Shown one piece after another: positions 3,274 through 26,742 of a stretch of DNA of 64,000 nucleotides. How positions within the stretch are numbered: the stretch's first letter is position 1; every line of letters begins with the position of its first letter. The notes under the pieces were generated by a model. The model ran no database searches, was not told where the DNA came from, and saw only the letters and a program-made list of their open reading frames with translations. The DNA is from Myxococcales bacterium. Lineage in GTDB: Bacteria; Myxococcota_A; Polyangia; Polyangiales; DASUME01. The stretch spans positions 8,448,001-8,512,000 of the forward strand of contig JASGJH010000001.1 of NCBI GenBank assembly GCA_047601445.1, read 5' to 3'. Both the position numbers and the translations under genes were made by a program.

Positions 3274-6139
3274 CTAGGCCTGGCCTTGAGGACCCCACTG
3301 CGTCTGCCGCGGTGAAGACGGGTCTGCCCTGCGGGAACCGCTCAGGGCCTCGCGGACACGCTGCAAGAGCGCCCTGGGGACGAAGGGCTTCTGCAAGATT
3401 TGCGGTGCCAAGTCACCCATCGAGCAGCCCGCTACCGCGGTGTCCGTGTAGCCCGACATGAACAAGACCGGGAGACCCGGATGGGTGCGGAGGAGTTCCC
3501 TGGCGAGTTCGGGACCGGAGCAACCCGGCATCATGACGTCGGTGAGCAGCAGGTCGATTCGCTCGCGGGTCTTGTGGACCAGGCGCAGCGCGCTCTCGCC
3601 GCTGTCGGCCGCGAGCACCCGGTAGCCGTGGGACGAGAGAACCCGCCGGGAGAGCTCGCGCACGGCCGGGTCGTCCTCCGCGAGAAGCACCGTCTCGGAC
3701 CCGTGGACCACCGAGAGCCTTTCGACGCGGGAGGCCGGGGCCGGCTTGGTTTCACCGCTGGCCGCAGGGAGGAGCAGCTCGAAGGAGCTTCCCTTACCGA
3801 GCTGAGTCTCGACGAGCACGGCGCCGCCGCACTGCTTGATGATGCCGTACACGGTGGAGAGGCCGAGCCCGGTTCCTTTGCCGCGGTCCTTGGTCGTAAA
3901 GAACGGCTCGAAAATGCGCGCGGGGGTCGACGGATCCATCCCGACGCCGGTGTCCACCACCTTGATGCGCACGTAGGATCCGGGTAGCAGCTCGGTGCCA
4001 TCGTCGGCAATGAGCTCGGCGGGGCCGAGGGTCACATCGCTCGTTTCGAGCGAGAGCACACCGCCGCTCGGCATCGCGTCGCGCGCGTTCACTGCCAAGT
4101 TCATGATCACCTGTTCCAGCTGATTGGGGTCCACGCGCACGTGACCGAGCTGCGGGGCCAAGCTGCGCTCGATGCGAATGCGCGCATCCAGTAGGCGGCG
4201 GAGCAAAGGTTCCAGTCCCTCGAGTAGCGTATTGACGTCCACGTCGCGCGCCTCGACCACTTGCTTGCGGCTGAAGGCGAGGAGCTGTTTGGTGAGCGCG
4301 GTACCGCGTTCGGCTGCAGCGTGGATCTGCTCGAGCTCGTTGCGCATGGCATCGCCAGGCCGCAGGCGCATCAGGGCCAGCTCGCTGAACCCCAAGAGTC
4401 CGGTCAGCAAATTGTTGAAATCGTGCGCTACGCCACCCGCAAGCCGGCCGATGGCCTCCATCTTTTGCGCCTGGCGCAGTTGGTCGGCGGTGGTTCGCAG
4501 GACTCGCTCGGCCTCTTGCCGTTCACGCAGGTCGTGGGCTACGAGCGCATAGAAATCGAGGCTCTCCTTCTCCTTTCTCGCGATCACGACCTGCTGCACC
4601 GGAATCGGCGTTCCGTCGCGATGCAGAAGCGAGATCTCGCCGCTCCAGGCGCCCATGCTCACGGCTCGAGCCAAGAATCTCTCCCGGCAAGCGTGCGCGC
4701 TCGGGTTCGGCGTGCAGGTCGGACATCGTCAGTTGTGTTGGGTCGAAGGATTCGTCGAACCCAAGCAGTCGACGTCCCGCAGGGTTGAGGTAGATCAGCT
4801 GACCCTCGGCGTCGGCCAGCGCAACAAGTTCGGTGGTGGCCTCCACGACGGCTGCCAGCCTGTCACGCGCGAGCTCGGCCTTGCGACGTACCTCGATGTC
4901 CTCCAACAGCGCGAGCGAGCCCACCGTGCGCCCGCTGGCATCAATCAAGGGAGCCGCGGAGACGCGAACCTGGAGCAGGCTGCCATCACGGCGCAGGCGC
5001 AAAGTTTCGTACGGGGAGGTCGGCGTACTGGACTCCCGCACGCGCTTCCATTCTTGCTCGAACTCCGCCGTCAATGGCGGCGGCACGATGGGCAAGGGCC
5101 GACCCAGCACCTCGTCGGGGCGATAGCCGAACATGCGCTCGGCTGCTGGATTCCAGGCCGTCACACGGGCCGACTCATCGATGGCGACGGTGGCGAGCGG
5201 AGAGGAATGAACGACTGCCCGATGTAGCTGGAGGGCCGTTTCCAGGCGTTCTACGAGGGCGGCGCGCTCGACGGTGGCGGTTCCGATGACCAGTCCGACC
5301 AGGGCCACGGACGCCAGCGTGACCTGCAGGTGCAAGACGGTTTCGCTCGGGATAGGACGAACGAGTGGTCCGACCCCGAAGAAGACGAGCACAGTGGCGA
5401 GCAGGTATAGGAGTGCAACGGCCACGGTGCCCCCGCGCAAACCAAAACGCAGGGCGCACCAGATCAAGGGCGGATACGCGAGGCTAGGTCGGCCGAAAAC
5501 GGGCGTGAAGCCAAGCAGAGCAAAGCTCACGAGCGTCGAGAACGCCAGCACCCGTTCGGGCCATGGACGGCGTTGCTCGCTTCCGACGTCGGCCCGGCGG
5601 AACGTCGCGGCGAGCGGTACGGTTAGCATCGCGCCCAGAGTGTCTGCCAACCACCAGTGGAGCAGGCTGCCGAAGGGGGCGGATTGCGTTGCGCCCAGCA
5701 AGCCGAGTACTCGGAAGCCGGCGCTGACGGCGGCGCCCAGTGCGCACGCGACGGCCAAGCGGCGCAGGTCGAGGAGTCTCAGCAGTTGAGGGTCGAACTG
5801 AGGCCGTCGACGCAGGAACATCGCGCTACAGACAGGGCCGAGCACATCCCCGAACCAGGTGGTCGCTGCTCCTTGCAGAGGTGTTCGCCAGAGCGATACG
5901 ATCAGCGCCCCGCATGCGACTCCTGGCAGCGCATCGCGTCCGCGCCACAGCAGTGCCGTCACCGCCACTCCGGCCGGAAGCCATACCGCACACAAGCGCT
6001 GAGGACCTAGCGCGATGACATTGTTCAGCACTGCGGCTGCGACGTAAGAGGAGGCAATAAGAGCTGCCTCGAGCACGCGAAAGCCGCCGGCTCGCAATCG
6101 GCTGTTTGGCAGGCTGGGCCGTTCGGACCGAACATCCAT
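3274..6139 (-). pseudogene. MASE1-PAS-PAS-histidine kinase-receiver hybrid sensor split by one frameshift near 4675-4690 (pseudogene or sequencing error)
   Basis: 5' ORF: MASE1 (VWLPAGVAV, WWLADTLG, WCALRFG) plus PAS; 3' ORF continues the second PAS (WSGEISLLHRDGTPIPV), then H-box LAGGVAHDFNNLL, NLAVNARDAMP, GKGTGLGLS and receiver DLLLTDVMMPG. Confidence 0.8.
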
Positions 6140-6410: not shown

Positions 6411-6510
6411 CGATGGAGGTTCCGCGATAACAGGAGAACGCTGTCTGTTTCGACGGGCTGCGTGCTTTTCCTTCAACCAGCGAGGCCCTTCTTTCCACGA
6501 ACCTGATCCC

Positions 6511-7119
6511 ATGACGCTCGTTGCCAACACCATTCGCAAGGTCTCAGCTCGAGAGGCGGGACTGATGGTCGTCAGTCCGGCAGGCGCGATCCGCCAGGCC
6601 AACGCTGCAGCCCATCGCACGCTCGGATACGATCAAGGCGCCTTGATCGGCCTCTCGCTCGCCTGGCTCGTGCCACCTTCCCGCCACGACCTGTTGACGA
6701 AGCTCGATGTCGCGCTGGGGCGCTCGACACCCTTGTACGTCGAGAGCGTGTTCATGCGTGAAGACGGAACTCAGCTCAACGTCGACCTCGTGCTCGAAGC
6801 GCGGAGCGGACGGCGGGAGCTGTCGCTGACCGTCGAGGTAGAGGAGGAGGAAGTCGAGCCGGTGCGTTGGCTGCCGCAGAGGTACGTGCTGCCCGTGAGC
6901 GATGTCGCGCCCAAACCGACGCAGCGCGTCGACTTGGGCGATCACCTGAGCGATTGCATCCAGCTACTCGCCTGGTTGGATTCGCACGTGAAGGACGCGA
7001 CGACCGAGGAGCTCGCTCGCCAGCGCGCTCGTGTGCGGGCCGTGCTGCAAGATGCGAACGGTCTGCTCGAGGACTGCAGAGCGGAACTCGCTCGCACGAA
7101 GATCGCGCTGAGATTTTGA
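6511..7119 (+). CDS. PAS-domain protein
   Basis: IRQANAAAHRTLGY..ALIGLSLAWLVP and REDGT PAS signature; helical C-terminus; start taken at ATG 6511. Confidence 0.65.
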   Translation: MTLVANTIRKVSAREAGLMVVSPAGAIRQANAAAHRTLGYDQGALIGLSLAWLVPPSRHDLLTKLDVALGRSTPLYVESVFMREDGTQLNVDLVLEARSGRRELSLTVEVEEEEVEPVRWLPQRYVLPVSDVAPKPTQRVDLGDHLSDCIQLLAWLDSHVKDATTEELARQRARVRAVLQDANGLLEDCRAELARTKIALRF

Positions 7120-7424: not shown

Positions 7425-10367
7425 ATGAAGAAGTACCGAAACGGTGCAAAATCATTCATTGCCGCGTGCTTCGTGCTCTCGGCTGCCGGTTGCGGAGACG
7501 ACGCTAGCAACGCCGAGGTCGGTGGCCAGGAGCAGGCCCTGACGGCCGTGCCGCAGCCCAGTAGGCCCTACACGTTGTTCGAAAGTCTGCAGGTGCGTCC
7601 GCTCGCGCTCTCTCCCAATGGCAAGTTCTTGTTCGCTGCCAACACCGCGGACAATCGCCTCGAGATGTTCAGCGTCAGCGCGAGTGGCCTCAGCCCCGCT
7701 GGCTCGGTCAGCGTGGGCCTCGAACCGGTCGCAGTGGCAGCACGCAGCGATAGTGAGATCTGGGTCGTCAATCATCTCTCGGACTCGGTGAGCGTGGTCA
7801 AGCTCGAGGCCGGCAACAAGCTGCGCGTCGTGCGCACGCTGCACGTGGGCGACGAGCCGCGCGATATCGTGTTCGCCGGACCGGGCAAGAGTCGTGCGTT
7901 CATCACCACGGCCCATCGCGGACAGAACGGCGATGACCCTCAGTTGTTCGACTCTGCCGCGGGTCGCGCGGACGTTTGGGTCTACGATGCCAACAACCTC
8001 GGCATCGCTGCAGGTGGCAGTCGACTCACCAAGATCACCTTGTTCGCAGACACGCCACGTGCCCTCGCTGCGAGCGCAGACGGGTCGCGGGTCTATGCGG
8101 CCCCCTTCTTCTCGGGCAACCAGACCACCATGGCCTCCAAGGATGCCGTGCGTCACGTCTACGCGAGCTCGGTCAATCCCGCCAATCCCAACGTCTTCCT
8201 CGTCAATGGACAACCCACGCCCATCACCGGCCGCGTCGTGAAGTACAAGGCGGGTCCGGATGGGCAGTTCCACTGGTTCGATGACCTGGGCACCAATTTC
8301 GACGCCTGGGTGCGCGTCCAGCTACCGGACAACGACGTATTCAGTATCGACGCCAATGCGCTGATCCCCTACGCGATCACCAACAAGACCTTCGCGCACC
8401 TCGGCACCACCCTGTTCAACATGGCCGTCAATCCGGTGAACGGGAAGGTGTACGTGGCCAACACCGAGGCGCACAACGACGTGCGCTTCGAGGGGCACAA
8501 CCCGACCCTGCCGGTGACGTCGGTGCGCGGCCGCACGGTCGACAGTCGCATCAGCGTGCTCGACCCCGGGACGGGCGGCGTGGTGCACAACGACCTGAAC
8601 CGCCATGTGGTGAACGGCGTGGGCGATGGCAGCCTGAGCCGTGCGTTCCCGCAGGATCTCGGCGTCACTTCGAACGGGCAGACGTTGGTGGTGGTGGCCC
8701 AAGGTAGCGGCAAGCTCGCCGTCTATGCCACCAGCGAGCTCGAAGCTGGCACCGCGATGCCGACCGCCAGCAACCAGGTGGTGCTCTCGGCCGGCGGTCC
8801 GGCCGGTGTCGTGCTCGACGAGCGCAACAACCGCGCCTACGTGTTGACCCGTTTCGACAACGGTATCTCCACGGTCAGCCTCGCATCACGCAGCGAAATC
8901 GCTCACCGACGCATGTTCAGCCCGGAGCCGGCCGTGGTCACAGAGGGCCGGCGCTTCCTCTACGATGCAGCCTTCACCTCGGAGAACGGCACCCAAGCCT
9001 GCGCCAGCTGCCACATCGGCGGTGACAACGATCAGCTCTCCTGGGACCTCGGAAACCCTGGCGGCGCGGGCAACGAGATCACCAAGCTCGCGGCGAACAA
9101 GAGCGTCATTTGGACCGCGCCGCCCGAGGTCATCTTGCAGACTCGCCCGCTCGCCGGGCCCATCTTCGAGCGCGCCGCCGCGCTCAAGGGGCCGATGAGC
9201 ACCCAGAGCCTGCGCGGTCTCGACAATCACGGGTCCATGCACTGGCGAGGCGATCGCAACGGCGCCATCCAGCAGAACGGACAGCCCTTCATCGATCCAG
9301 GCACGGGGCAACCCGTGGTGTCCGCGCAACCGAACGCGGGCATCTTCGACGAGTTCCGCGCCTTCGAGTCGTTCAACGTGGCCTTCCCCGGCCTGGTGGG
9401 TCGCAACGCCGAGCTCAGTTCCGCCGACATGGCCGCGTTCGCGGCCTTCGCGCTGGAGATCAGCTATCCGCCGAACCCCATTCGCAACCTGGACGACTCG
9501 CTGACGCTGGAGCAGGAGTACGGGCGTAGCGTGTACTTCCAGACCGATGCCCAGGGCAACGAGCTTCCGGTCGATCGCCTGCACAACTGCAACGGCTGCC
9601 ACACGCTCGACCGCAACGGCAACGCAGGTCAGACCGATCATCCCGGTTTCTTCGGCACCAGTGGGCGGCTCTCCTTCGAGAACTTGCCGCAGATCTTCAA
9701 GGTCGCGCACTTCCGCAACGCCTACACGAAGGTCGGCATGTTCGGCTCCTCGCCTGACGAAAACCGCACCTTCACCACCCAAGACCTGCTCAATCCGGCG
9801 GTCACCGCGGTGCGTGGCTTCGGCTATCAACCGGACGGCGCGGTGGGCTCCATCGAGCACCACCTCACGGGCAAAGTCTTCATCCGCACGGACTTCGAGA
9901 TCGAAGGCGCATCGCCGAATCCAGGCGGCATTCCCACCTTCTATTTCGACGCCGACAAGAACCCGGTGCTGCCGGACCCCGGGGGCTTCGTGGTGCGCCG
10001 CGGCCTCGCCGCATTCCTGCTCGCCTACGACAGCAACGTGCGACCCATCGTGGGGCAGCAGATCACGCTCAACCTGTTTAGCGCTGTGGCAGCGGGCGTG
10101 CGTATCGATCTGCTCAAGGCGCGCGCCCAGGCGGGTGACTGCGATCTGATCGTCAAGGGCATGATCAACGGGCGCGAGCGTGGCTATGTCTTCGAGAACG
10201 GCAAGTTCCGCCCGGACGACAGCAGCTCGCCCATCACGGACCTGCAGCTGCGGGCCATGGTGCCGCTGGCTACCGACGCGCTCACGTACACGTGCGTGCC
10301 GCCGGGCACCGGCTACCGCGTCGGCATCGACCGCGATGCGGACGGCATCGCAGACGGCAACGAGTGA
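7425..10367 (+). CDS. Lipoprotein with YVTN/YncE beta-propeller and di-heme cytochrome c region
   Basis: Lipobox AAGC; propeller repeats (VGLEPVAVA, VVNHLSDSVSVV, VGDEPRDIVF); two CxxCH motifs (CASCH, CNGCH); AGGAG RBS. Confidence 0.85.
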   Translation: MKKYRNGAKSFIAACFVLSAAGCGDDASNAEVGGQEQALTAVPQPSRPYTLFESLQVRPLALSPNGKFLFAANTADNRLEMFSVSASGLSPAGSVSVGLEPVAVAARSDSEIWVVNHLSDSVSVVKLEAGNKLRVVRTLHVGDEPRDIVFAGPGKSRAFITTAHRGQNGDDPQLFDSAAGRADVWVYDANNLGIAAGGSRLTKITLFADTPRALAASADGSRVYAAPFFSGNQTTMASKDAVRHVYASSVNPANPNVFLVNGQPTPITGRVVKYKAGPDGQFHWFDDLGTNFDAWVRVQLPDNDVFSIDANALIPYAITNKTFAHLGTTLFNMAVNPVNGKVYVANTEAHNDVRFEGHNPTLPVTSVRGRTVDSRISVLDPGTGGVVHNDLNRHVVNGVGDGSLSRAFPQDLGVTSNGQTLVVVAQGSGKLAVYATSELEAGTAMPTASNQVVLSAGGPAGVVLDERNNRAYVLTRFDNGISTVSLASRSEIAHRRMFSPEPAVVTEGRRFLYDAAFTSENGTQACASCHIGGDNDQLSWDLGNPGGAGNEITKLAANKSVIWTAPPEVILQTRPLAGPIFERAAALKGPMSTQSLRGLDNHGSMHWRGDRNGAIQQNGQPFIDPGTGQPVVSAQPNAGIFDEFRAFESFNVAFPGLVGRNAELSSADMAAFAAFALEISYPPNPIRNLDDSLTLEQEYGRSVYFQTDAQGNELPVDRLHNCNGCHTLDRNGNAGQTDHPGFFGTSGRLSFENLPQIFKVAHFRNAYTKVGMFGSSPDENRTFTTQDLLNPAVTAVRGFGYQPDGAVGSIEHHLTGKVFIRTDFEIEGASPNPGGIPTFYFDADKNPVLPDPGGFVVRRGLAAFLLAYDSNVRPIVGQQITLNLFSAVAAGVRIDLLKARAQAGDCDLIVKGMINGRERGYVFENGKFRPDDSSSPITDLQLRAMVPLATDALTYTCVPPGTGYRVGIDRDADGIADGNE

Positions 10368-10795
10368 CTCTGCTGCATGCCCGTGACCTCGAGGACCTCG
10401 AGGTCGGGCACGTCACGAGGTGATGACGTTGCTGCGCACCGGGGCGCCGGCGAGTCCCTATCAGGACGCGTTCGTGGTGCGAACGTTCTGAGCGCGGCTG
10501 GGGAGCAAGGCTTGGCTCGCACGGCGACGTGCATCGTGCGCGGCACGGTTGGTACAAAGCGCCGCGGGGCGTACCTCTTGAAGCACCAGAATAGTCGATT
10601 CGAGCCCGTCCCACGGTAGCGGGAGTTCGGGCACGGGACGCCAAGGCGAGGTCGACACGTCACCCGCAGGTGCTTGGGATCGCTCGGTTTTAATATTAGT
10701 CGCTATAACGCTAAATGGGCGAGCCGCGTCGCCATGGGCGGACGTGTTCTTCTGCAGCGGTGCCATGGCTACGCGAGCTGCTTGGCAAGGGCCAT

Positions 10796-10836
10796 TTTTA
10801 ATGTTAGTCGATGTGACATCAAATGAGCGAGCCGCG
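10796..10836 (+). promoter_or_regulatory. TetR operator/promoter abutting the tetR start; degenerate second copy at 10688-10728
   Basis: Imperfect palindrome TTTAATGTTA-N7-TGACATCAAA running into the ATG; 41-bp similar copy 108 bp upstream. Confidence 0.6.
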
Positions 10837-11428
10837 CCCCTACAACATGAAGGCCCGCGCCGAGAGCGCGCAGGCGACGCATCTGAGCATCATCGCGGCG
10901 GCCGTTGCGCTGTTCATGGAGACGGACTGGGCCGACGTGAGCCTGGAGATGATCGCAGCGCGCGCGCAGGTGACGCTTCAGACTGTGCTGCGCCGCTTCG
11001 GTTCGAAGGCGGGGCTGTTCAGCGCCGCCGTCGAACAGGTCGCAGCCGAGGTGCAGAGCCTGCGCGTCCCCGCGCGCAAGGGCGATGCGCGCGCTGCCAT
11101 TCGTGCGCTCGTCGACTTGTACGAGAAATTCGGTGAGATGAACTGGCGCCTCTTGCGTCACGAAGCGCACGACCCAGCGCTGGCGGCCCTGCTCGATCGA
11201 GCGCGCTCGGTCCACCGCACGTGGCTGGAGGAGGTGTTCGATGTGCACCTGCCTGCGCGCGGAAAGGAGAGGGAGCGACGTCTCTCGCTGCTGTTCGCGG
11301 CGACCGATTTCTACGTATGGAAGCTTGCGCGCAAGGACCTAAAACGCAGTCGTGCCCAGGCAGAGCGAGTGATCTTCGAGCTAGTCGAAGCACTCCTGCA
11401 GCAGTTCGAGCTCAAGGAGGAGCCATGA
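10823..11428 (+). CDS. TetR/AcrR family transcriptional regulator
   Basis: N-terminal HTH SLEMIAARAQVTLQTVLRRFGSKAGL. Confidence 0.9.
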   Translation: MSEPRPYNMKARAESAQATHLSIIAAAVALFMETDWADVSLEMIAARAQVTLQTVLRRFGSKAGLFSAAVEQVAAEVQSLRVPARKGDARAAIRALVDLYEKFGEMNWRLLRHEAHDPALAALLDRARSVHRTWLEEVFDVHLPARGKERERRLSLLFAATDFYVWKLARKDLKRSRAQAERVIFELVEALLQQFELKEEP

Positions 11429-17809: not shown

Positions 17810-17957
17810 GGCCTGCTTGTAGCGGACACGGCGTCGTTCGTCCTGCCCTGCGCCCCGTGAGACTCACCCCAGCCTCGGGACTGGCAGTGTTGACGTGCGC
17901 GAACGCACCTCGGTATCGTGTCCCTCTGGTCTGGAACAAGCCAGACCTCGGAGGACC

Positions 17958-18092
17958 ATGAGCGACCCTACCAACAGTGACCCTAGCAAGATCAAGCTAC
18001 CCACCAAGCCCGCCGGTATCAGGTCTAACGCCAACGCTAACGTGGTGCGCGTGAAGCCGTCCGTAAAGAAGCCGATCTGGTCCGGACGCTGA
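17958..18092 (+). CDS. 44-aa small protein, candidate RiPP precursor peptide
   Basis: GGAGGA RBS immediately before the ATG; MSDPTNSDPSKIKLPTKPAGIRSNANANVVRVKPSVKKPIWSGR; same strand as ycaO-tfuA, about 1.25 kb upstream. Confidence 0.5.
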   Translation: MSDPTNSDPSKIKLPTKPAGIRSNANANVVRVKPSVKKPIWSGR

Positions 18093-19287
18093 GTTCGTTC
18101 TTGGGTCGGGCACCCGAGGCCATGCTTCGAGACGTCCGGCCTGTGCGTCCTGGCCCGCGCGTTCGCTTGCGCTCCCTCGGGCGCGCCAGCGAACCGCGGA
18201 GGCGCTCCAACAGGAGCTGATGGTTTTCTCGGCAGGCGGTTACGCTCGGGTGCTTGTCGCCGAGCGTCGCGCGGAAAACGCGCAGAGCCTCCTCGCTCAA
18301 CGGCAGCGCTCGGCGGAGCAGGCCTCGCTCTTGATAGAGGGCAGCGAGGTTGTTCAGGATCAAGCAGAGTGTCGGGTCTGCCTCATGGGTGGCCTTCTTC
18401 AGCGCGAGCGCGCGCCGATAGTATCTCAATGCTTCTGCAGGCCGTCCGCTGCGGTGCAAGAGTGCGCCAAAGTTGGCGAGCTGAAAGGCCAGTTGCGGAT
18501 GGTGCACTCCGTAGATCCGTTGCAGCGCCGCGATGGCCTCGCGATAGAGTCGTTCGGCTTCGCGACGCTCCCCGCAGGCGTCGAGGATGGCCGCCAAGCC
18601 AGCCGCCGTATGAGCGACGTCAGGGTGCCTTGGACCGAGGGCGCGGCGTCGGATTGCAAGCGCGCGCCGTGCGGGCGGCAAGGCGCGCCGGAAGTGCCCG
18701 CGCGCGTGGGCCAGGCCTCCGAGGTTGTGATAGATGCCGCCGAGCCGCAGATCATGCTCATCAACCTGGGGCTTGAGGATTGCCAGGGCTCGTCTGTAGG
18801 CCGTTCCCGCTTCGTTGAAAGCTCCCATGTACTTGCAGACCACGCCCAGTTCGTTGTGCAGGGCGGCCACCGTCGGGTCTCTGGGGCCCAGTGCACGCTC
18901 GGCAAAGAGCAACGCGCGCTGAAGCCGACTCTTGGCGCGGCGGTAGCGCGCTTGACGGCGTTCGAGGTCGGCCAGGTAGAGCTGGACCTGAACGCGCAGC
19001 TGCAGACGCTCGGTTCCTTTTCGGACGCGTCGGCTGAGCTGAGCCGCGCGGGTGCCATGACGATGGGCTTCATCCAGATCGCCAAGGCCGCCGAGCGCAT
19101 TCATCGACGTCATCAGCACATTGACGAGCTCCGGCGAGGACGGGCCGAAAGCGAGCTCGCAGCGCTGCAGGGCGCCCAGGGCCAGGCGGACCGACTCCTG
19201 ATACTGACCGGCCTCGAGTGCTTGCTCAGCGCGCTCGAGCCAGCGGGCGGTCGATCGTTGAAGAGCTTGGTTTGGAATGATGCTCAT
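18037..19287 (-). CDS. Tetratricopeptide repeat protein (kinesin-light-chain-type repeats)
   Basis: Repeats LGPRDPTVAALHNELG, YHNLGGL, LGPRHPDVA, LNNLAALY, LGDKHPSV; start at ATG 19287. Confidence 0.85.
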   Translation of the reverse strand: MSIIPNQALQRSTARWLERAEQALEAGQYQESVRLALGALQRCELAFGPSSPELVNVLMTSMNALGGLGDLDEAHRHGTRAAQLSRRVRKGTERLQLRVQVQLYLADLERRQARYRRAKSRLQRALLFAERALGPRDPTVAALHNELGVVCKYMGAFNEAGTAYRRALAILKPQVDEHDLRLGGIYHNLGGLAHARGHFRRALPPARRALAIRRRALGPRHPDVAHTAAGLAAILDACGERREAERLYREAIAALQRIYGVHHPQLAFQLANFGALLHRSGRPAEALRYYRRALALKKATHEADPTLCLILNNLAALYQERGLLRRALPLSEEALRVFRATLGDKHPSVTACRENHQLLLERLRGSLARPRERKRTRGPGRTGRTSRSMASGARPKNELSVRTRSASLRTASRAPR

Positions 19288-19346
19288 AGAGTGTCCAGTT
19301 GCGGGGCATCCCCACGCGTTCACCAAGAAAGATGGGTCGTTGCGAC

Positions 19347-20561
19347 ATGCGTATTTTCGATCGCGAGTATTCGGCAGAAAAGCACTATCTTGCGGGCACC
19401 CATCGATCGCGTAGCCCCGCGCAGACGGTGGCGGCGATGCGGCGCCACATGCCTCGCATGGGCATTACGCGGCTTGCCAACGTGACCGGACTCGACCACG
19501 TGGGGATTCCGGTGTTCGTTTCGGTCCGTCCAAACTCGCTGTCCCTGGCCACCGCGCAGGGCAAGGGCGTGGATGTCGATTCGGCGCGCGCCTCGGCGTT
19601 GATGGAGTCCGTCGAGGGCTGGCACGCGGAACACATCGAGCTGCCGCTACGCTGGGATTCGTACCAACGCTTGCGTCGCCAGGCCCCGGTGGTCGATGTA
19701 GATAGGCTGGCCCTCGTCAACCCGGTAAACCACGCGCTGGCGCGAGGCTGGTTGGAGGGGTGGGACCTCATCGGAGGCTGCTCGACATGGGTGCCCTACG
19801 ACGTGGTGACCACGGACTACGTCGCGGGAACCCGCAGCGAGTTCCTGCAAACGAGCAATGGCCTCGCATCGGGAAACCACCTCCTTGAAGCGGCCGTCCA
19901 TGGCCTGTGCGAACTGATTGAGCGCGACGCCGAAGCGCTGTGGCACGCCAACGCCGACTTGCGTGCTGTCGACCTGACGTGCATCGAAGAACCATACTGC
20001 GCGGCGCTCTTGACGCGGCTGCGGCGTGCGGAGCTCTTCGTGGCGGCCTGGGAGATGACGTCAGACCTGGGCATTCCCGCGTTCGGTTGCCTGGTGATGA
20101 ACACGCCCGAACAGAACCGGTGGCGTGTCGAAGGGCTCCACTACGGCTACGGCTGCCATCTTGAGCCCGCGGTCGCCCTCTCGCGTGCCATCTCCGAGGC
20201 TGTGCAGACACGGCTGACCTACATCGCAGGCAGTCGCGACGACCTGCGCAAGAGCGACTACCTCGGCACGCGCAACCCGGACCATCTTCGCGAGGCGTAC
20301 GACGAGTTGCGGGCGATGGCGCCGAACCGTCGCCTGTCGGACATGGCCTCCCTCGCGACCAGGACCTTCGAAGGCGATCTGGAAGTGTTGCTCGATGCCG
20401 TACGCAGGGCGGGCCTGCCGCAGGCAATCCTGGTCGATCTTGGCAAACCGGAGCTGGAGATGGCCGTGGTGCGCATGGTGGTACCGGACCTGATGACCTG
20501 CGACGCAGTGCTACCGATGAACCGCTTGCCGGCGAGCCGCGCTGCCATGGGAGGTGTGTGA
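19347..20561 (+). CDS. ycaO: YcaO-family ATP-dependent amide-activating enzyme (TfuA-associated, thioamide-forming type)
   Basis: GITRLANVTGLD, QGKG..ARASALMESVE, SNGLASGN..EAAVHGLCELIERDA, EAVQTRLTYIAGSRDD. Confidence 0.93.
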   Translation: MRIFDREYSAEKHYLAGTHRSRSPAQTVAAMRRHMPRMGITRLANVTGLDHVGIPVFVSVRPNSLSLATAQGKGVDVDSARASALMESVEGWHAEHIELPLRWDSYQRLRRQAPVVDVDRLALVNPVNHALARGWLEGWDLIGGCSTWVPYDVVTTDYVAGTRSEFLQTSNGLASGNHLLEAAVHGLCELIERDAEALWHANADLRAVDLTCIEEPYCAALLTRLRRAELFVAAWEMTSDLGIPAFGCLVMNTPEQNRWRVEGLHYGYGCHLEPAVALSRAISEAVQTRLTYIAGSRDDLRKSDYLGTRNPDHLREAYDELRAMAPNRRLSDMASLATRTFEGDLEVLLDAVRRAGLPQAILVDLGKPELEMAVVRMVVPDLMTCDAVLPMNRLPASRAAMGGV

Positions 20562-21886
20562 TGAATGGAGGGATCTACGTCTTTCTCGGGCCGACCCTGC
20601 CTGTGGCACAAGCGCGCTCCATCTTGTCTGCAGAGTACTTGCCCCCAGTCACGCTGGGGGACGTTACCCGCGTGACGGAGAAAAATCCGTCGGCCATTGC
20701 GATCATAGACGGCTTGTTCGATCAAACCCCGGCGGTCTGGCACAAGGAGATCATGTACGCCCTCCACAAGGGCATCCGTGTGCTCGGTGCGTCTAGCATG
20801 GGTGCACTGCGTGCGGCCGAGCTGCATGTCTTCGGTATGGAGGGCATCGGCAAGGTCTTCGAGGCCTACCGTGAGGGTGTTCTGGAAGATGACGACGAGG
20901 TCGCGGTCGCGCATCGGCTCGCGAGCGGCGAGTTCCGCGTAGAGTCCGAGGCCATGGTGAACGTGCGTGAGACGCTGCTGCGGGCGCAGGCGGCGGGCGT
21001 ACTCTCTCGCACGCTAGAGCAACGATTGTGCGCGATCGCCAAGGAGATGTTCTATCCCGACCGTACCTGGCGCAGCATCCTCGGATCGGCGCGCATGGCA
21101 GGTCTGCCCCAGGAGGAGCTCGCGCAACTCGAGAAGTACGTGGCCGCGTCACGCGCGGACCTCAAGCGCGAAGATGCCCTGGAGCTCTTGCACAAGTTGG
21201 CGCGGGAGCGCCACACGGCAAGACCGCGAGTCGTGCCGAGCTTCGACTTCGAGCCGACCGTCTACTGGCAAGACATGCGCTCCGAGGAGCTGCTCGAGAG
21301 CGAGCTCGAAGAGCTGGCCGGACAGCTTCCACCAGAGCTCGAGGCCGATCAGCTGCGTCGGCACGTCAGACTTTCCCAGGCGCTCCATACCGACATGGCT
21401 CGCGAGGCACTGCTGCTATTTCTGTCGCGACGCGAGGCCGAGCGCATCGGAGGTCCGCCTCCGGCCGAGGAGTGGGCGACTCGAGCCAGCGCGCTGCAGC
21501 AATCGGCGCCGTCGCTCCAGGTGGCCAACGCCCGCAGGCTCGCCGCAGCTCAGCTCGGGCTAGAAAAAGTCCTGGAAACACAGCGCGTCGATCTACTCAG
21601 CCACTTTGCCGTGCTGCTCGCCGAGCGCGGATTGTGGGAAAGCACGATCGCCGACGCTCGGCACAAGATGCGCACGCTCGCCGACCTGGGACTGACGGAG
21701 CCTTCGCTCGAGGACGCTGGGATCGATCTCCCCGGGCTCATGACGTGGTTCGCGGCGCGCTACCAGGTAGAGGTGGCAGAGCCGGAGGTCCACGCATGGA
21801 GTCTCGGCTTCACCACGGTCAACGAGTTCACCAGCGAACTCCTGCGCCAGTTCTTGGTGGAGCGGCAGGTACAGTTGGTTCCGTGA
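20561..21886 (+). CDS. tfuA: TfuA-like protein with long C-terminal extension
   Basis: VFLGPTL, IIDGLF..AVWHKEI, GASSMGALRAAEL, DDDEVAV, EAMVNVR, DLKREDA; overlaps the ycaO stop. Confidence 0.92.
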   Translation: MNGGIYVFLGPTLPVAQARSILSAEYLPPVTLGDVTRVTEKNPSAIAIIDGLFDQTPAVWHKEIMYALHKGIRVLGASSMGALRAAELHVFGMEGIGKVFEAYREGVLEDDDEVAVAHRLASGEFRVESEAMVNVRETLLRAQAAGVLSRTLEQRLCAIAKEMFYPDRTWRSILGSARMAGLPQEELAQLEKYVAASRADLKREDALELLHKLARERHTARPRVVPSFDFEPTVYWQDMRSEELLESELEELAGQLPPELEADQLRRHVRLSQALHTDMAREALLLFLSRREAERIGGPPPAEEWATRASALQQSAPSLQVANARRLAAAQLGLEKVLETQRVDLLSHFAVLLAERGLWESTIADARHKMRTLADLGLTEPSLEDAGIDLPGLMTWFAARYQVEVAEPEVHAWSLGFTTVNEFTSELLRQFLVERQVQLVP

Positions 21887-21910: not shown

Positions 21911-23713
21911 TCAGCGAAACAAGCCTGGCAAGTACGCGGTGTCCGCCGTGAAGCGGAGCTCGAGGTCGCGGGCGACGCAGCAGAGTGCGAGCAGGGGCCA
22001 CGCGATCAATCCATCGTCGTCCAGCCGCCTCGACGGCGGCGTGAAGTACTTCTTGTGGGCCGAGAGAGCCGAGACCAGCGCGCTCTGGAAGGCTGCGCTG
22101 TCGCGCCTGGCGAGGGCGTCCAGCAGCGGGGCCAACGGTTTGATCAGCCCGTCCATCTTCGCGCGCTCGATGAAGCGACGGTGCTGCGGTTGGGTGAACT
22201 CGCGGAACTGCGCGACGGCGCGCAGCGCCACGTCGGGCTTGCGGCGCAGGGTACTCAACGCAGCGCGCAGGGAGGCCTGGAACGGATCCACGTCCGTGCG
22301 CAGGCTCGCCTCCGGCATGCCCTCGATGCGCTCGAGGTTCGCACCGTCGCGGACGATCGAAGTTAGATACCAGGCCGCTGTCCATTGGAGTGGGTTGACG
22401 AGCTCGTTCTTCGCCGGCACGGTGACGGTGAAGCTGCCGAGCGGGAACGACACCTCCGGGCCACCGCCTGGCAGGTACGCGCAGAGCTGGCCGGCGGCGG
22501 CCTGGGCCGCGAGCCGCATGCTGTCCAGGATGATCGCGTGGTCCGGCTCGATGGCGGTCGCGCTGGCCGCCACCGTCTTCGCTCCGTAGTGCACGCGGTT
22601 CAGCGCCGCCGCCGGACCCAGCGCAAACGTGCCGTCGATGATCGCGACCATCTCCGCGCGTCGCTCGCGATAGGTCGCGTGGTCCAGCATTGCCACATCC
22701 AAGGCCGGACGCGCGATCGACGCATCCTTCGCGGGCGCCGCAGGAGACGCCTTCGCTCGCGCGCGCTTCGGGCGCTCATACTGGTCCGCCATACGCGAGA
22801 GCGAACCCTCGAGGTCCGCCGCCTCCATGTCTTCGGGAGCGGTGGTGGCGAGCCTGCCGGCACGCGCGTCGTGCCACAGCAGGGTGCCGCTACCATTCGT
22901 AGCGATCGGAACCAGCCAGCGCAACAGCGCGTGCTTGGTGGCGGGGCCCAGCCCCTGGAGTTGTGCGTCGAAGGCCTCGAGCATGCCGTTGCCGTAAAAC
23001 AACGCGACCTTGCGCCCGGCATCCGCGAGCCACCGTACATCGTTCGCGGCAAAGCGCTGACGGTCGACCTTGTTGTTCAGGTCGTGGTGGTGGTCGAGCC
23101 GTCCATCAGCGCTCACGGCCAGGAGGGCGTGCCCTCTTTGCATCATGCGCATGTAGTGGCGGTGCGTGAGCAAGAGGGTGTCGTCTAGCACTGCCATGCT
23201 CTCGAACGCGCTGTGCCCGGCGAACACCTTTCCGCGTGCGTATAGCTGGTCTTTCGAGTCGGCAAAGAACGGCACCGGCGGTTCGGCAGCGGTAGACGGC
23301 ATCACCATCAGCCGCGTCGCCCGCCCGGAGTCCGCGATGCTTAGAACGGTGCGGTCGCCGAGCACGGCGACCTGCATCACGCCGGCCTCCTCGCCGCCGC
23401 AGCCCGTCCACTCGGGCGGCGCGCTGGGCTCGAGCGCCTGCAGGTCGAGTTCGAGGTTGTGTGCGGTATCACCGACCACGCCGAGCAGACATCGCCCGTC
23501 GGGTAGGGCAAACGGTCGCGCCGAGTACCACCTGCACTCGGCACCACTCGCTACGACCCGCGTGCAAAGCACGCCTAGCTGAGCGTCGAACAGGGACAGC
23601 ACGGCCCGCACACCGTGCTGCGCGGCGGCCACAATCCAACCCGACGGCGTATGCGCGGCATGCACCGTGACTGGACTCGTCCAATCTGTCTCGAACTGAA
23701 ACTCCTTGGGCAT
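21911..23713 (-). CDS. Protein with C-terminal Immunity-49 (Imm49)-like domain and unknown N-terminal domain
   Basis: C-terminus WTAAWYLTSIVRD...FQSALVSALSAHKKYF...GLIAWPLLALCCVARD...TAYLP resembles Imm49. Confidence 0.7.
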   Translation of the reverse strand: MPKEFQFETDWTSPVTVHAAHTPSGWIVAAAQHGVRAVLSLFDAQLGVLCTRVVASGAECRWYSARPFALPDGRCLLGVVGDTAHNLELDLQALEPSAPPEWTGCGGEEAGVMQVAVLGDRTVLSIADSGRATRLMVMPSTAAEPPVPFFADSKDQLYARGKVFAGHSAFESMAVLDDTLLLTHRHYMRMMQRGHALLAVSADGRLDHHHDLNNKVDRQRFAANDVRWLADAGRKVALFYGNGMLEAFDAQLQGLGPATKHALLRWLVPIATNGSGTLLWHDARAGRLATTAPEDMEAADLEGSLSRMADQYERPKRARAKASPAAPAKDASIARPALDVAMLDHATYRERRAEMVAIIDGTFALGPAAALNRVHYGAKTVAASATAIEPDHAIILDSMRLAAQAAAGQLCAYLPGGGPEVSFPLGSFTVTVPAKNELVNPLQWTAAWYLTSIVRDGANLERIEGMPEASLRTDVDPFQASLRAALSTLRRKPDVALRAVAQFREFTQPQHRRFIERAKMDGLIKPLAPLLDALARRDSAAFQSALVSALSAHKKYFTPPSRRLDDDGLIAWPLLALCCVARDLELRFTADTAYLPGLFR

Positions 23714-23839
23714 GGGCACCGAACTCAGCACGCGACGGCCCTTGTAGAACTGTGTTGCTGCATGCGCCTGGACTCTACTCGTGAGCCGTGGCCAGGTCGC
23801 GACTTTTCGCCAGTCGTGCTCGGCCGCTGGCAGCTGGCT

Positions 23840-24682
23840 TCAGTTCGAGAAGATGCGCAAATTGGCGCCTGGCTCCAGCATCGGACGAATGCGAGCCGCG
23901 ATGTCCTCGGGCGACTTGGGCGCAGGCTGCGCGTGATAGAGGTCCAGGGAGCGTCGCACGCGCTTGACCTCGCCCATGGCGCGTAGCGCTTCGAGGGAGG
24001 TCCGGTCCGTTCGGTCCAGGGCCGCAAAGCGCAAGCAGGCCGGGTCGAGCAGTCGCCGCTGTACCCGGAAGTTCACTTGATGCGCGCATCGGCACGGATT
24101 CTCGGGGTTGGCCACGCCGCATTGCTTGGACATGAATGCATCGAGGGTCGCGCGGGCCCGTGACAGCCGCTTGCGAAACGCGACCTCGCTGATTCCGAGC
24201 GCCGCAGCGGCCTCGGGCGACTCCAGCTCACAGATGGCCCCGAGCACGAACGCGATACGCTGATCGCGATCGAGCGCCCGCAACATCGCCTGCGTGCAGC
24301 CGAGGAAGACTTCCTCCTCCAGCAGCCTTGCGTCGGCGGCCCCCAACGTCTCCGGCGCGATCTCGTTCGGTGGTTGCCCGAGGTTCTCCGCGAGCTCCTC
24401 GAACGTCGCCCGTCGGGCCTCGGCCTTCTCGCGCAGCAAATGGCGGCAGGCGATGCGATAGGCCCAGGTGGAGACCGCGCTCTCACCGCGGAAGGTGGAG
24501 AGCTTGGTGATCACCAGGATCAAGATCTCTTGCGTTGCGTCACGGGCGTCGTCGCGGTGACTCAGGAACCTCAGGGCGAGCGCGTAGATGGGATCTTGCA
24601 GGCCCCGAACCAGGCCTTCGAGCGCGTCTCGATCGCCTTCTTTGGCGCGCGCTGCCAGGGCGTCGAGGCCAGGGGCAATCAC
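23840..24682 (-). CDS. ECF RNA polymerase sigma factor with Cys-containing C-terminal extension
   Basis: DARDATQEIL, FRGESAVSTWAYRIA, region-4 HTH, then CGVANPENPCRC. Confidence 0.88.
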   Translation of the reverse strand: MIAPGLDALAARAKEGDRDALEGLVRGLQDPIYALALRFLSHRDDARDATQEILILVITKLSTFRGESAVSTWAYRIACRHLLREKAEARRATFEELAENLGQPPNEIAPETLGAADARLLEEEVFLGCTQAMLRALDRDQRIAFVLGAICELESPEAAAALGISEVAFRKRLSRARATLDAFMSKQCGVANPENPCRCAHQVNFRVQRRLLDPACLRFAALDRTDRTSLEALRAMGEVKRVRRSLDLYHAQPAPKSPEDIAARIRPMLEPGANLRIFSN

Positions 24683-25572
24683 TGCGCGGCCTCACTCGCG
24701 GCGCCGACTACCTTGGGCAACCACGCCTCGAGTGCAGCGACGATCTCCATGGGCGAATCCTCCTGCGGGTAGTGTAACCCGGGGACCGTGACCTCATCTT
24801 GGTTGGGCAGTGTGCGGCAAAGCTCGCGCAGGGTGCCCACCAGCAAGCGTCCAGGCTCGGCATTGATGAACAGCTTGGGAACGCTGCTCTCGGTGAGCCA
24901 TGCGCGATAGCGATCGATCCGCGCGACGATCTCGGGCGGCTGGTCGTCGAAGGGCAGCATGCGTGGCCAGGACAGGGTGGGGCGGCGGGCTTCACCGGAG
25001 TCACGAAACGGGCGCCTGTACTCGTCCGCGTCGACCTGGCTCAGGGGGCGCAGGGTGCTCTCCGCGGAGACCATGCGTTCCACGAAAAGGTTCTCATCCA
25101 GCACCATGCGCTCGCCTTCGGATGAGCGAATCTTGTCGAAGAACGCTTGCGCCGGAGGGGGCAGCAGCGACAGCGGCGTCGAGCCGATCAAGCCCTCCAT
25201 GTAGGCCATGCCACGAACGCGCTCGGGGTGTCGGCGCGCCCAGTCGAAGCCCAACGCCGATCCCCAGTCGTGAACCACCAGGACCACTGGCTCGTCAGGC
25301 AGCACGGCGTCGAACCAGCCATCGATGAAGGCCTGCTGCGTCGCATAGGCGTAAGCGTCCGGTCCGGTCTCCGGCAGCTTGGCGGAGTCGCCCATCCCGA
25401 TGAGGTCCGGGGCAAGGCACCGATATCGGCCTTCCAACGGGGCAACGATGTTCCGCCAGAGATACGACGACGTGGGATTGCCATGGAGGAACACCAAGGG
25501 GACACCCTCACCCCGGTCCACGTAGGCCATCGAGAAACCCTTGATCTGAACGAACTTTTTGGCCGCTTTCAT
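24679..25572 (-). CDS. Haloalkane dehalogenase (DhaA/LinB family)
   Basis: FLHGNPTSSYLWRNI, PDLIGMGDS, VHDWGSALGF, RRPTLSWPR, LHYPQEDSP. Confidence 0.9.
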   Translation of the reverse strand: MKAAKKFVQIKGFSMAYVDRGEGVPLVFLHGNPTSSYLWRNIVAPLEGRYRCLAPDLIGMGDSAKLPETGPDAYAYATQQAFIDGWFDAVLPDEPVVLVVHDWGSALGFDWARRHPERVRGMAYMEGLIGSTPLSLLPPPAQAFFDKIRSSEGERMVLDENLFVERMVSAESTLRPLSQVDADEYRRPFRDSGEARRPTLSWPRMLPFDDQPPEIVARIDRYRAWLTESSVPKLFINAEPGRLLVGTLRELCRTLPNQDEVTVPGLHYPQEDSPMEIVAALEAWLPKVVGAASEAAQ

Positions 25573-25728
25573 GACTTGCTCCCGCAGCCCTTGGTTGGGC
25601 TTCTGGTTTTTGGAGCACTGGCGCGAGCCAAGTGTGACCGAGAAAAGAGCCCGGCAGCAGGGCGGCTCGATCACCCTCGCAGGTCGTCTGCCGGCAAGCT
25701 TGCTCACAGGGCGCATGATCTCGTATGG

Positions 25729-26742
25729 GTGGGCAAGCATCAGGAGCTCACGCTGACCCGGACCGTACGCCAAACCATCGCCCTGTTCATGGTCTGTCCG
25801 CTCTGGGCCTGCGCTGGGGACCGTCACGCGGACCGCGACGCGAGTACCTGGTCCGTCGACGGCGGTGCGGACGCTTCGCCCGCCGCGGACGGGGAGTGTG
25901 GCAGCCTGCACGACCTCGACGATTGGGTCGGAATCTCCACCACCGAAGAGCTGGCGGCGATGAAGTGCGTGCGCAGCGTGAGCGGGACCATCACGATCTC
26001 GGGCGACGAGATCATGGATCTGAGCCCGTTGGGACACCTCGAGCGTGCCCATGGCTTGAGGCTCACGGGGCTGACTCGGATCACCAGCCTGCACGGGCTG
26101 GAGAACCTGCGAGAGCTGAGGGTGGATGGCCTGCTCATCGAGTCGAATCCGGCGCTCAAGGATCTGCGTGGCCTCGACTCGCTCGAGCGCGTGGTAGGCC
26201 GACTCGAGGTGGCGGACAACGCTGAGTTGGTCACACTCGATGGCCTAGGGGCCGTTCGTAGCGTGGAGAACCCCTATCCGTCCCAGCCCTTGTTCTGGGG
26301 GCAGATCGTGATTCGCGAGAACCCACGGCTCGGCTCACTCGCGGCACTGGTTGCGCTCGTGAACGTGGACTCTGGCTTCCACGTCTGCGGGAACCAGGAG
26401 CTGACCACGTTGTTGCCCAACCCAGGCGCGATCCAGAACGTCGGCTTGCGTCTGAACGTGTTCTACAACCCAGCCCTGAGCTCCGAGACCGTGCAGGCTC
26501 TGCACGACGCGCTCCGGGTGGACCGGGTCAAGATCGCCGCCAACGGCCCGGCTCCATACGAGCCACGCATCCCTTGCGACTACGTGGGTGACGGCATCTG
26601 CGATGAAGCCATGTACGTCAGCGGCGACGTGATCGAGCACTGCGATCAGCTCCCGTGCTGTGCGCTCGAAGGGCCGACCGGGCTGTGCACCACTGGCAGC
26701 GATGCACTCGATTGCCCCCAAACGGGCGGCCTTCCCTTCTAG
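25729..26742 (+). CDS. Receptor-L-domain/leucine-rich putative lipoprotein (start uncertain)
   Basis: Possible lipobox LWAC; repeats LTSLHGLENL, NPALKDLRGLDSL, NAELVTLDGL; C-terminal Cys cluster GDGICDE. Confidence 0.7.
   Translation: MGKHQELTLTRTVRQTIALFMVCPLWACAGDRHADRDASTWSVDGGADASPAADGECGSLHDLDDWVGISTTEELAAMKCVRSVSGTITISGDEIMDLSPLGHLERAHGLRLTGLTRITSLHGLENLRELRVDGLLIESNPALKDLRGLDSLERVVGRLEVADNAELVTLDGLGAVRSVENPYPSQPLFWGQIVIRENPRLGSLAALVALVNVDSGFHVCGNQELTTLLPNPGAIQNVGLRLNVFYNPALSSETVQALHDALRVDRVKIAANGPAPYEPRIPCDYVGDGICDEAMYVSGDVIEHCDQLPCCALEGPTGLCTTGSDALDCPQTGGLPF

Follow-up and report, generated by a model that had tools for sequence, protein, structure and literature searches.

Gene content and organization of the locus

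The window analyzed here is a 64,000-nucleotide stretch of a Myxococcales bacterium genome (assembly GCA_047601445.1, contig JASGJH010000001.1, positions 8,448,001 to 8,512,000), and the system in question is a small locus within it that couples a ycaO gene to a tfuA gene and places beside them a tetratricopeptide repeat (TPR) gene and a short peptide open reading frame (ORF). An initial annotation, made from the letters alone, had proposed that this locus installs thioamides in a ribosomally synthesized and posttranslationally modified peptide (RiPP) or in a protein. Re-reading the sequence returned the same four-ORF layout (peptide, TPR, ycaO, and tfuA) at the same positions.

17950..17954, plus strand: GGAGG, resembling a ribosome-binding site (RBS), 3 nt 5' of the peptide ATG, a short spacing (sequence)
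17958..18092, plus strand: 44-aa Lys/Asn/Pro-rich peptide ORF, candidate precursor (ORF, coding-like codons, 41-aa homologue, motif matrix)
18037..19287, minus strand: stand-alone TPR protein, 416 aa (TPR_12 and TPR_10 matches, subfamily motifs)
19288..19346, no strand: 59 bp separating the start codons of the divergent TPR and ycaO genes (sequence)
19347..20561, plus strand: YcaO, 404 aa, TfuA-associated type (PF02624, conserved columns intact)
20561..21886, plus strand: TfuA, 441 aa, with the TfuA domain at residues 3-220 and a helical C-terminal domain (PF07812, NF033432, 6XP8)

The ycaO stop codon (TGA, 20559-20561) overlaps the tfuA ATG, with a GGAGG 6 nt upstream of tfuA. The divergent TPR gene lies, as annotated, near ycaO, at an ATG-to-ATG gap of exactly 59 bp, and the 44-aa ORF is present on the ycaO strand, with coding-like codons and one homologue; it overlaps the final 56 nt of the convergent TPR gene. 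The ycaO, tfuA, and subfamily TPR genes each occur once in the 9.5-Mb genome. A promoter and terminator scan of the locus stayed at chance level (1 versus 0.6 and 1 versus 2.7, respectively), including a promoter-like site upstream of the peptide.

Among the 17 proteins scanned in the flanks (7.4-29.7 kb of the window), no family match was found for lanthipeptide or azole enzymes, proteases, transporters, or ThiS/ThiF; the absence described by the initial annotation thus holds for these proteins, the only exception being an alpha/beta hydrolase at 24682-26094. Elsewhere, the genome holds three ThiS, three ThiF, and two C39 genes.

The YcaO-TfuA pair

YcaO matches PF02624 (E 1.8e-75). Of the columns with 90% or higher conservation across 44 related YcaOs, it retains all 62, including SA.ME..E, SNG.A.G, E..ERD, and RA..E..Q.R. 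The TfuA domain matches PF07812 (E 2.8e-46) and NF033432 (236.7 bits, cut-off 235.2) and retains 46 of 47 conserved columns relative to 46 relatives, with a single L>M change. Together with the stop/start overlap, these columns confirm the earlier claim of a coupled pair with intact motifs. The TfuA structure model superimposes on 6XP8 (Z 29.8, rmsd 1.5 over 215), YcaO matches the methanogen enzyme 6PE3 (E 4.6e-29), and the best NCBIfam and PDB sequence matches of the pair are methanogen enzymes; named TfuA homologues include Polyangia, Kofleriaceae, and Sorangium. It is likely that the pair is a TfuA-associated YcaO thioamide synthetase, and for this predicted activity the initial annotation gains comparative support.

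The chemistry of YcaO enzymes depends on the nucleophile, and the peptide, which has no Cys, offers five Ser and three Thr at which an azoline or amidine could be envisioned in place of a thioamide. Such a product is very improbable, given that ycaO is coupled to an intact tfuA, that the azoline-type model TIGR03604 gives YcaO 149 bits, under its cut-off of 219, that the enzyme lacks a P-x-P-x-P stretch, the motif of azoline-forming YcaOs, and that no E1 or dehydrogenase partner was found among the flanking proteins.

TfuA also carries a C-terminal domain of ~210 aa (residues ~230-441), which the initial annotation had not mentioned and which is modeled as helical (pLDDT 88). This domain is common to a group of long TfuA proteins and is not specific to the cassette described below. 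Among aligned C-terminal domains, 15 of 25 match TIGR04500 (best E 2e-12) and two match SurA_N_3; the window domain itself matches neither. A structure search placed PrsA, SurA, trigger factor, and PEB4 in the top seven, with a best Z of 5.6, which is below the level meaning more than a common arrangement, while Foldseek returned no match at E <= 0.001 and Atlas no usable match. Sequence and model together suggest a weak relationship to SurA-type chaperones, and the domain may serve in peptide holding.

Related ycaO-tfuA loci and the choice of substrate

A long-TfuA profile matched 98 of the 401 genomes of the class, two of them unpublished genomes whose DNA does not enter the comparison. The neighborhoods compared here form a sample of 51 ycaO/tfuA loci, consisting of 40 long-TfuA matches chosen mainly by score and 11 loci from other searches; the count omits L010 (poor gene calls) and L015 (YcaO match only), and the stretches span ~5-19 kb, some stopping at contig ends. 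A scan of genome contigs with YcaO alone gave two loci.

A TPR gene related to that of the window is found in 4 of the 51 loci, L050-L053, from one genus of another order. It diverges from ycaO in L050-L052, as in the window, and lies upstream on the same strand in L053. Units of the form K-x-K-x3-K-A-[AG]…N-H-N, one to five of them, occur in peptides encoded at each of these four loci (NHN peptides). A hidden Markov model (HMM) of these peptides, trained solely on ycaO-free loci, detects them in all four ycaO/tfuA loci with the TPR subfamily (29-158 bits) and, at a threshold of at least 20 bits, in none of the 47 without it. A quick tree (45 rows, with L073, L086, and L163-L167 left out) places the window YcaO as sister to those of L050-L052 (SH-aLRT 96); the L053 YcaO falls in an unresolved wider group together with TPR-less loci. 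Neither TPR nor NHN peptide is present in L162 and L163-L167, which are also close by YcaO. The initial annotation had named, as an observation that would count against it, homologous ycaO-tfuA loci lacking the peptide and TPR genes; the three closest YcaO loci have the divergent TPR gene together with repeat peptides of a related type. Comparison thus lends support to linking the peptide and the TPR with ycaO-tfuA, and the presenting role once suggested for the TPR protein can still be put forward only as a conjecture.

Whether the substrate is the small peptide or a protein had been left open. The protein alternative envisions thioamidation of a folded protein (the TPR protein, a kinase of the wider cassette, or a housekeeping protein), with McrA and uL16 as precedents and the peptide as a separate TPR ligand. 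YcaO protein substrates are known (PMC5589413, PMC13063428), the methanogen matches given above lean the same way, and the TPR gene is the one placed most tightly beside ycaO. YcaO nevertheless scores 221 bits with TIGR03266, under the cut-off of 365, and 34 bits with the uL16-type model NF040716, far under 700; according to PMC13063428, TfuA is not encoded near the suspected uL16-modifying YcaOs, from which the window YcaO, with its adjacent TfuA, differs. A patchy spread among nine congeners (no YcaO closer than 38%, the TPR subfamily in none) is an ill fit for a housekeeping target, and the other long-TfuA loci mostly have small precursor-like ORFs beside ycaO (by eye, uncounted). A protein target is distinctly unlikely on these grounds, and the peptide is favored.

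The TPR subfamily and its peptide-exporter cassette

Residues ~1-365 of the TPR protein belong to a distinct subfamily with the alignment motifs KY.G, YHNLGG..H.RG, and HP.VA. The window protein scores 442 bits against a subfamily model in which it is included, the only such match in its genome. The subfamily occurs in 38 of the 401 genomes of the class, 31 of these in one family.

Beyond the window and L050-L053, 35 loci with this TPR were collected, and none has ycaO or tfuA in its stretch. NHN peptides of at least 20 bits are found in 17 of the 35, of which 15 trained the HMM. The gene for a C39 peptidase-ABC exporter starts no more than 900 bp from the TPR gene, in divergent orientation, in 22, lies elsewhere in 3, and was not seen in 10, some of these being cut by contig ends; genes for a Ser/Thr kinase-TPR protein and an FHA-sigma54 protein are common neighbors. 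Since the exporter faces the TPR gene in 22 of the 35 ycaO-free loci, ycaO-tfuA in the window and in L050-L052 occupies the divergent slot usual for the exporter. The initial annotation had missed this wider cassette. With one query, the cassette exporter was not found in four of five genomes of the L050-L053 genus (67-96% complete); in the window genome no orthologue of the exporter pair was found, the matches being generic ABC ATPases, and the two C39 genes lie far away. Atlas clusters of similar peptides are unnamed and mostly from Myxococcota and Acidobacteriota, a weak result by Atlas' own measure.

A SET-domain motif is fused at the C terminus of 32 of the 119 TPR homologues among the matches listed (for example P0144, P0146, P0148, and P0154), which fits a substrate-binding module joined to a modifying enzyme. 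The TPR protein of the FxSxx-COOH system offers a partial comparison: NF040586 gives the window TPR 113.9 bits (cut-off 300) over about half of the model length, and the peptide C terminus, IWSGR, is not FxSxx.

Because the TPR subfamily occurs in 35 stretches free of ycaO and tfuA, its basic role cannot be the feeding of YcaO. This invites an explanation that shares the thioamide chemistry and differs only in the TPR role: the peptide would be modified without the TPR protein, which would serve as a cytoplasmic receptor of the product and feed kinase/sigma-54 circuits. RRNPP receptors provide the precedent, with a TPR domain that binds the mature signal peptide and controls output. The ycaO-free loci themselves, the kinase-TPR and FHA-sigma54 genes that flank many of them, and the chaperone-like domain that TfuA already possesses are consistent with a receptor. 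The window cassette, however, has no kinase or activator, Pfam finds no DNA-binding domain on the window TPR, and the SET fusions point to substrate holding, so a receptor is highly unlikely.

Several observations were made in passing on this family. The TPR-SET fusions may be Lys methyltransferases for Lys-rich peptides. A ~440-aa protein without a Pfam or NCBIfam match is encoded directly after the TPR gene and before the peptide or ycaO in L133 (6485-7813, minus strand), L158, and L053; these loci show no exporter, the gene is apparently frameshifted in L053, and the protein is a candidate modifying enzyme. L053 also encodes a 36-aa NHN peptide (3834-3944, minus strand) that scores 17.5 bits with the trifolitoxin precursor model TfxA_RiPP/NF033430 (cut-off 35); a trifolitoxin link is not claimed for this sub-cut-off score, which probably reflects Lys-rich composition. 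At G000:C1:4867145-4872079, a separate exported-peptide locus, HlyD-like and C39 transporter genes lie downstream of the gene for a 63-aa peptide that bears a GG motif.

Assignment of the 44-aa peptide

The peptide reads KIK-LPT-KPAG-IRS-NAN, followed by a second unit, RVKPSVK. Its ORF has a codon log-odds of 0.175, a value that 18 of the 1514 short ORFs from a 600-kb test stretch equal or exceed; true-gene segments average 0.33 (sd 0.24), and 21% of them score below the peptide ORF. The tail of the TPR protein that overlaps it (~50 aa) is non-coding-like (log-odds -0.65) and extends past the end of the subfamily alignment; read-through of the TPR gene probably accounts for the overlap. The sole homologue, P0125 (41 aa, 92% over 84%), is known from its protein sequence alone; 33 of its last 35 residues are identical to the window peptide, and its N terminus is different. 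No close TfuA or TPR relative appears among the matches listed (best 58% and 49%). Pfam and NCBIfam contain no family for either peptide. Two other matches were set aside as chance: P0263, a eukaryotic Mind bomb SH3-repeat protein from the representative search, whose score sums ten repeats, and L049:10001-10084, the only match of a metagenome scan with the peptide, which consists of 8 identical residues in an antisense frame at a locus without ycaO or tfuA. The gene antisense to the L049 match reads, by eye, as a lipoprotein signal peptidase.

The family feature order KIK-x3-K-x-AG-x3-N-x-N is kept in the peptide, but with Pro for Ala and Ala for His. A two-block motif matrix, built from the same ycaO-free units as the HMM, ranks it first among 11,105 RBS-bearing short ORFs in each of its five variants and, in one variant, first among all 65,118 short ORFs of the genome; between 0 and 10 of 3000 shuffles reach its score. 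The peptide ORF abuts the genome's only subfamily TPR, and this coincidence of the best-scoring ORF with the sole TPR is the main argument for membership. We lean toward regarding the peptide as a candidate divergent member of the NHN family.

A number of points weigh against this assignment and against the cassette as a functional unit. The family HMM gives the peptide -3 bits, versus 31 and 158 for two true members, and, of 191,958 genome segments, does not place it within the best 15. When a profile was made from the peptide and P0125, it recovered no NHN peptide from 1.84 billion representatives. The resemblance had been seen before the matrix was designed, and true members, at 38 and 49, score three- to fourfold above the 12.7 of the window peptide. 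Of 56 conserved columns, 18 are lost in the window TPR, where the other 39 TPRs have lost 0-11; it is the most diverged of the 40, with the longest branch on the TPR tree, and the five ycaO-linked TPRs require three changes on that tree, so a single origin of the TPR-ycaO link is not shown. The four supporting loci, L050-L053, all come from one genus and do not constitute independent support, and in L050-L052 the peptide gene lies ~3 kb beyond tfuA on the opposite strand.

The parallel divergence of TPR and peptide fits either a joint change of specificity or joint decay. If decay is the cause, peptide and TPR would be passengers of an ancestral NHN cassette, and YcaO-TfuA would have its substrate elsewhere, or none. 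The TPR divergence and its read-through tail, set beside conserved columns that YcaO and TfuA have kept, suggest as much, as do the missing His of N-H-N and the failure with the family HMM; exporter and kinase are absent from the window cassette, nor does the genome encode an orthologue of the exporter pair. Decay is nonetheless unlikely in our estimation. The TPR reading frame is unbroken, the genome contains no candidate peptide that scores better, and P0125 is nearly identical over its last 35 residues, although no close TfuA or TPR relative is among the matches listed.

Proposed mechanism

The explanation that we consider moderately probable is that YcaO-TfuA thioamidates the 44-aa peptide, with the TPR protein as adaptor, in a four-gene cassette. 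In characterized systems, YcaO activates the backbone amide with ATP, and TfuA hydrolyzes thiocarboxylated ThiS to give sulfide (PMC8939145, PMC13063428). By analogy, YcaO and TfuA would install one or more backbone thioamides in the 44-residue peptide, and a ThiS-type sulfur carrier would be supplied in trans from the three ThiS/MoaD-like genes of the genome. The K-x-K-x3-K-x-A-G segment may be the recognition part, and the IRSNAN segment, the counterpart of the family N-H-N segment, the modified core. The TPR protein would hold the peptide, possibly together with the SurA-like domain of TfuA. Because the cassette has no exporter, the product would either stay in the cell or be trimmed and released by housekeeping proteins; it can be envisioned as a signal and not as a classical thioamitide toxin. 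The cassette itself may have been acquired horizontally. Substrate, modification site, TPR role, and product fate are all predicted here from sequence.

One possible in-trans sulfur source is an operon at G000:C1:2093672-2097451 that encodes, besides two cysteine-synthase-like proteins, a ThiF, a JAB-like protein, and a ThiS/MoaD-like carrier with a terminal GG (some labels by eye).

A broader and more doubtful proposal, which we offer tentatively, is that, in a widespread peptide cassette of myxobacteria and acidobacteria, the dedicated TPR protein is a universal peptide-holding adaptor with swappable partners, be they a C39 exporter, YcaO-TfuA, a SET methyltransferase fusion, or the ~440-aa protein. 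In the branch represented here, the exporter would have been replaced by a thioamide writer and an exported peptide thereby turned into an intracellular thioamidated signal, with TPR and peptide co-diverging from N-H-N to N-A-N.

Relation to known systems

Thioamitides such as thioviridamide and thiostreptamide share with the locus a YcaO-TfuA pair predicted to thioamidate a ribosomal peptide backbone. They have a C-terminal Cys for the AviCys ring, and their clusters encode a decarboxylase, a kinase/lyase, and a methyltransferase. These three families were not found among the 17 proteins flanking the window pair, and the window peptide, having no Cys, can form no AviCys ring. The NHN-repeat peptide/C39 exporter/kinase cassette of Myxococcota and Acidobacteriota has the same TPR subfamily, the same divergent slot, and a similar peptide motif order; the locus described here differs in having ycaO-tfuA for the exporter, a single short N-A-N peptide, and no kinase or sigma-54 activator.

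The initial annotation overstated the case in calling the minimal architecture unlike known clusters. Thiovarsolin of Streptomyces varsoviensis is made by varA, varY, and varT alone, without need of a cluster protease (PMC6511847), so minimalism is not new. Like the window locus, var is a minimal precursor-YcaO-TfuA set independent of a cluster protease, and its precursor has repeats, as do the NHN peptides of L050-L052. The window peptide is unrelated by eye, with no APR/GPR core, and the locus has the TPR subfamily and a long TfuA with a SurA-like domain while lacking a VarO-like oxidase, ATP-grasp, amidinotransferase, and major facilitator superfamily (MFS) gene. The methanogen McrA thioglycine system (PMC5589413; 6XP8, 6PE3) is similar in its overlapping ycaO-tfuA, TfuA fold, and stand-alone YcaO; the window locus is bacterial, falls under the TIGR03266 cut-off, and has an extra TfuA domain and peptide and TPR neighbors. 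TPR proteins recur in graspetide clusters, where their role is described as unclear (PMC8939145); these and the FxSxx-COOH TPR resemble the window locus in placing a TPR protein in a RiPP cluster and differ in precursor and enzymes.

A literature search, with most subscription journals outside its coverage, found no paper on NHN-type precursors or a TPR-YcaO-TfuA cassette, and a term search of the PDF supplement of PMC8120280 found no NHN peptides.

Additional genes and loci

Two flanking genes of the window deserve mention. A 606-aa protein encoded at 21911-23731 (minus strand), convergent on tfuA and 24 bp from it, carries an Imm49 immunity domain at its C terminus (E 2.4e-26) and is unannotated toward its N terminus; by eye, this gene is not seen beside related loci. 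At 7425-10367 (plus strand), a 980-aa protein has beta-propeller and di-haem cytochrome c peroxidase-like matches.

Other ycaO-tfuA loci have arrangements of their own. A second recurrent long-TfuA layout (L064, L065, L068, L071, L078, L164, L165, and L166) has, 5' of ycaO, a large kinase-type gene (~1100-1250 aa), often an NmrA-like gene (by eye), and a small protein of 90-300 aa directly before ycaO. In L067, a 59-aa peptide with ESAGF repeats (6497-6676, oriented) lies directly 5' of ycaO-tfuA and is a candidate multi-core precursor. L055 and L057 appear thiopeptide-like, their ycaO-tfuA being flanked by more YcaO-like genes, a ~120-aa peptide, and a ~830-aa dehydratase-like gene (by eye). 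L163 has a 45-aa acidic peptide ahead of ycaO (7853-7990) and, after tfuA, a 240-aa gene (10544-11266) that resembles tetrapyrrole/borosin-type methyltransferases. L162 (G312:C243; YcaO 48%, TfuA 43%) has two further YcaO-like genes upstream.

Implications

The locus likely produces a peptide, modified with sulfur, that belongs to no described kind; comparative sequence evidence predicts, as the most likely case, a thioamide RiPP served by a TPR adaptor. As of 2021, all characterized YcaO-TfuA RiPPs were actinobacterial (PMC8120280). The locus offers a short, concrete substrate candidate for a myxobacterial YcaO-TfuA pair, such that one co-expression experiment would suffice as a test. It likewise suggests a testable role for the stand-alone TPR proteins of RiPP clusters, called unclear in the graspetide survey (PMC8939145), and provides an entry point to the uncharacterized NHN-peptide family. 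Finally, the SurA-like C-terminal domain may prove to be the peptide-holding domain of a large TfuA subgroup.

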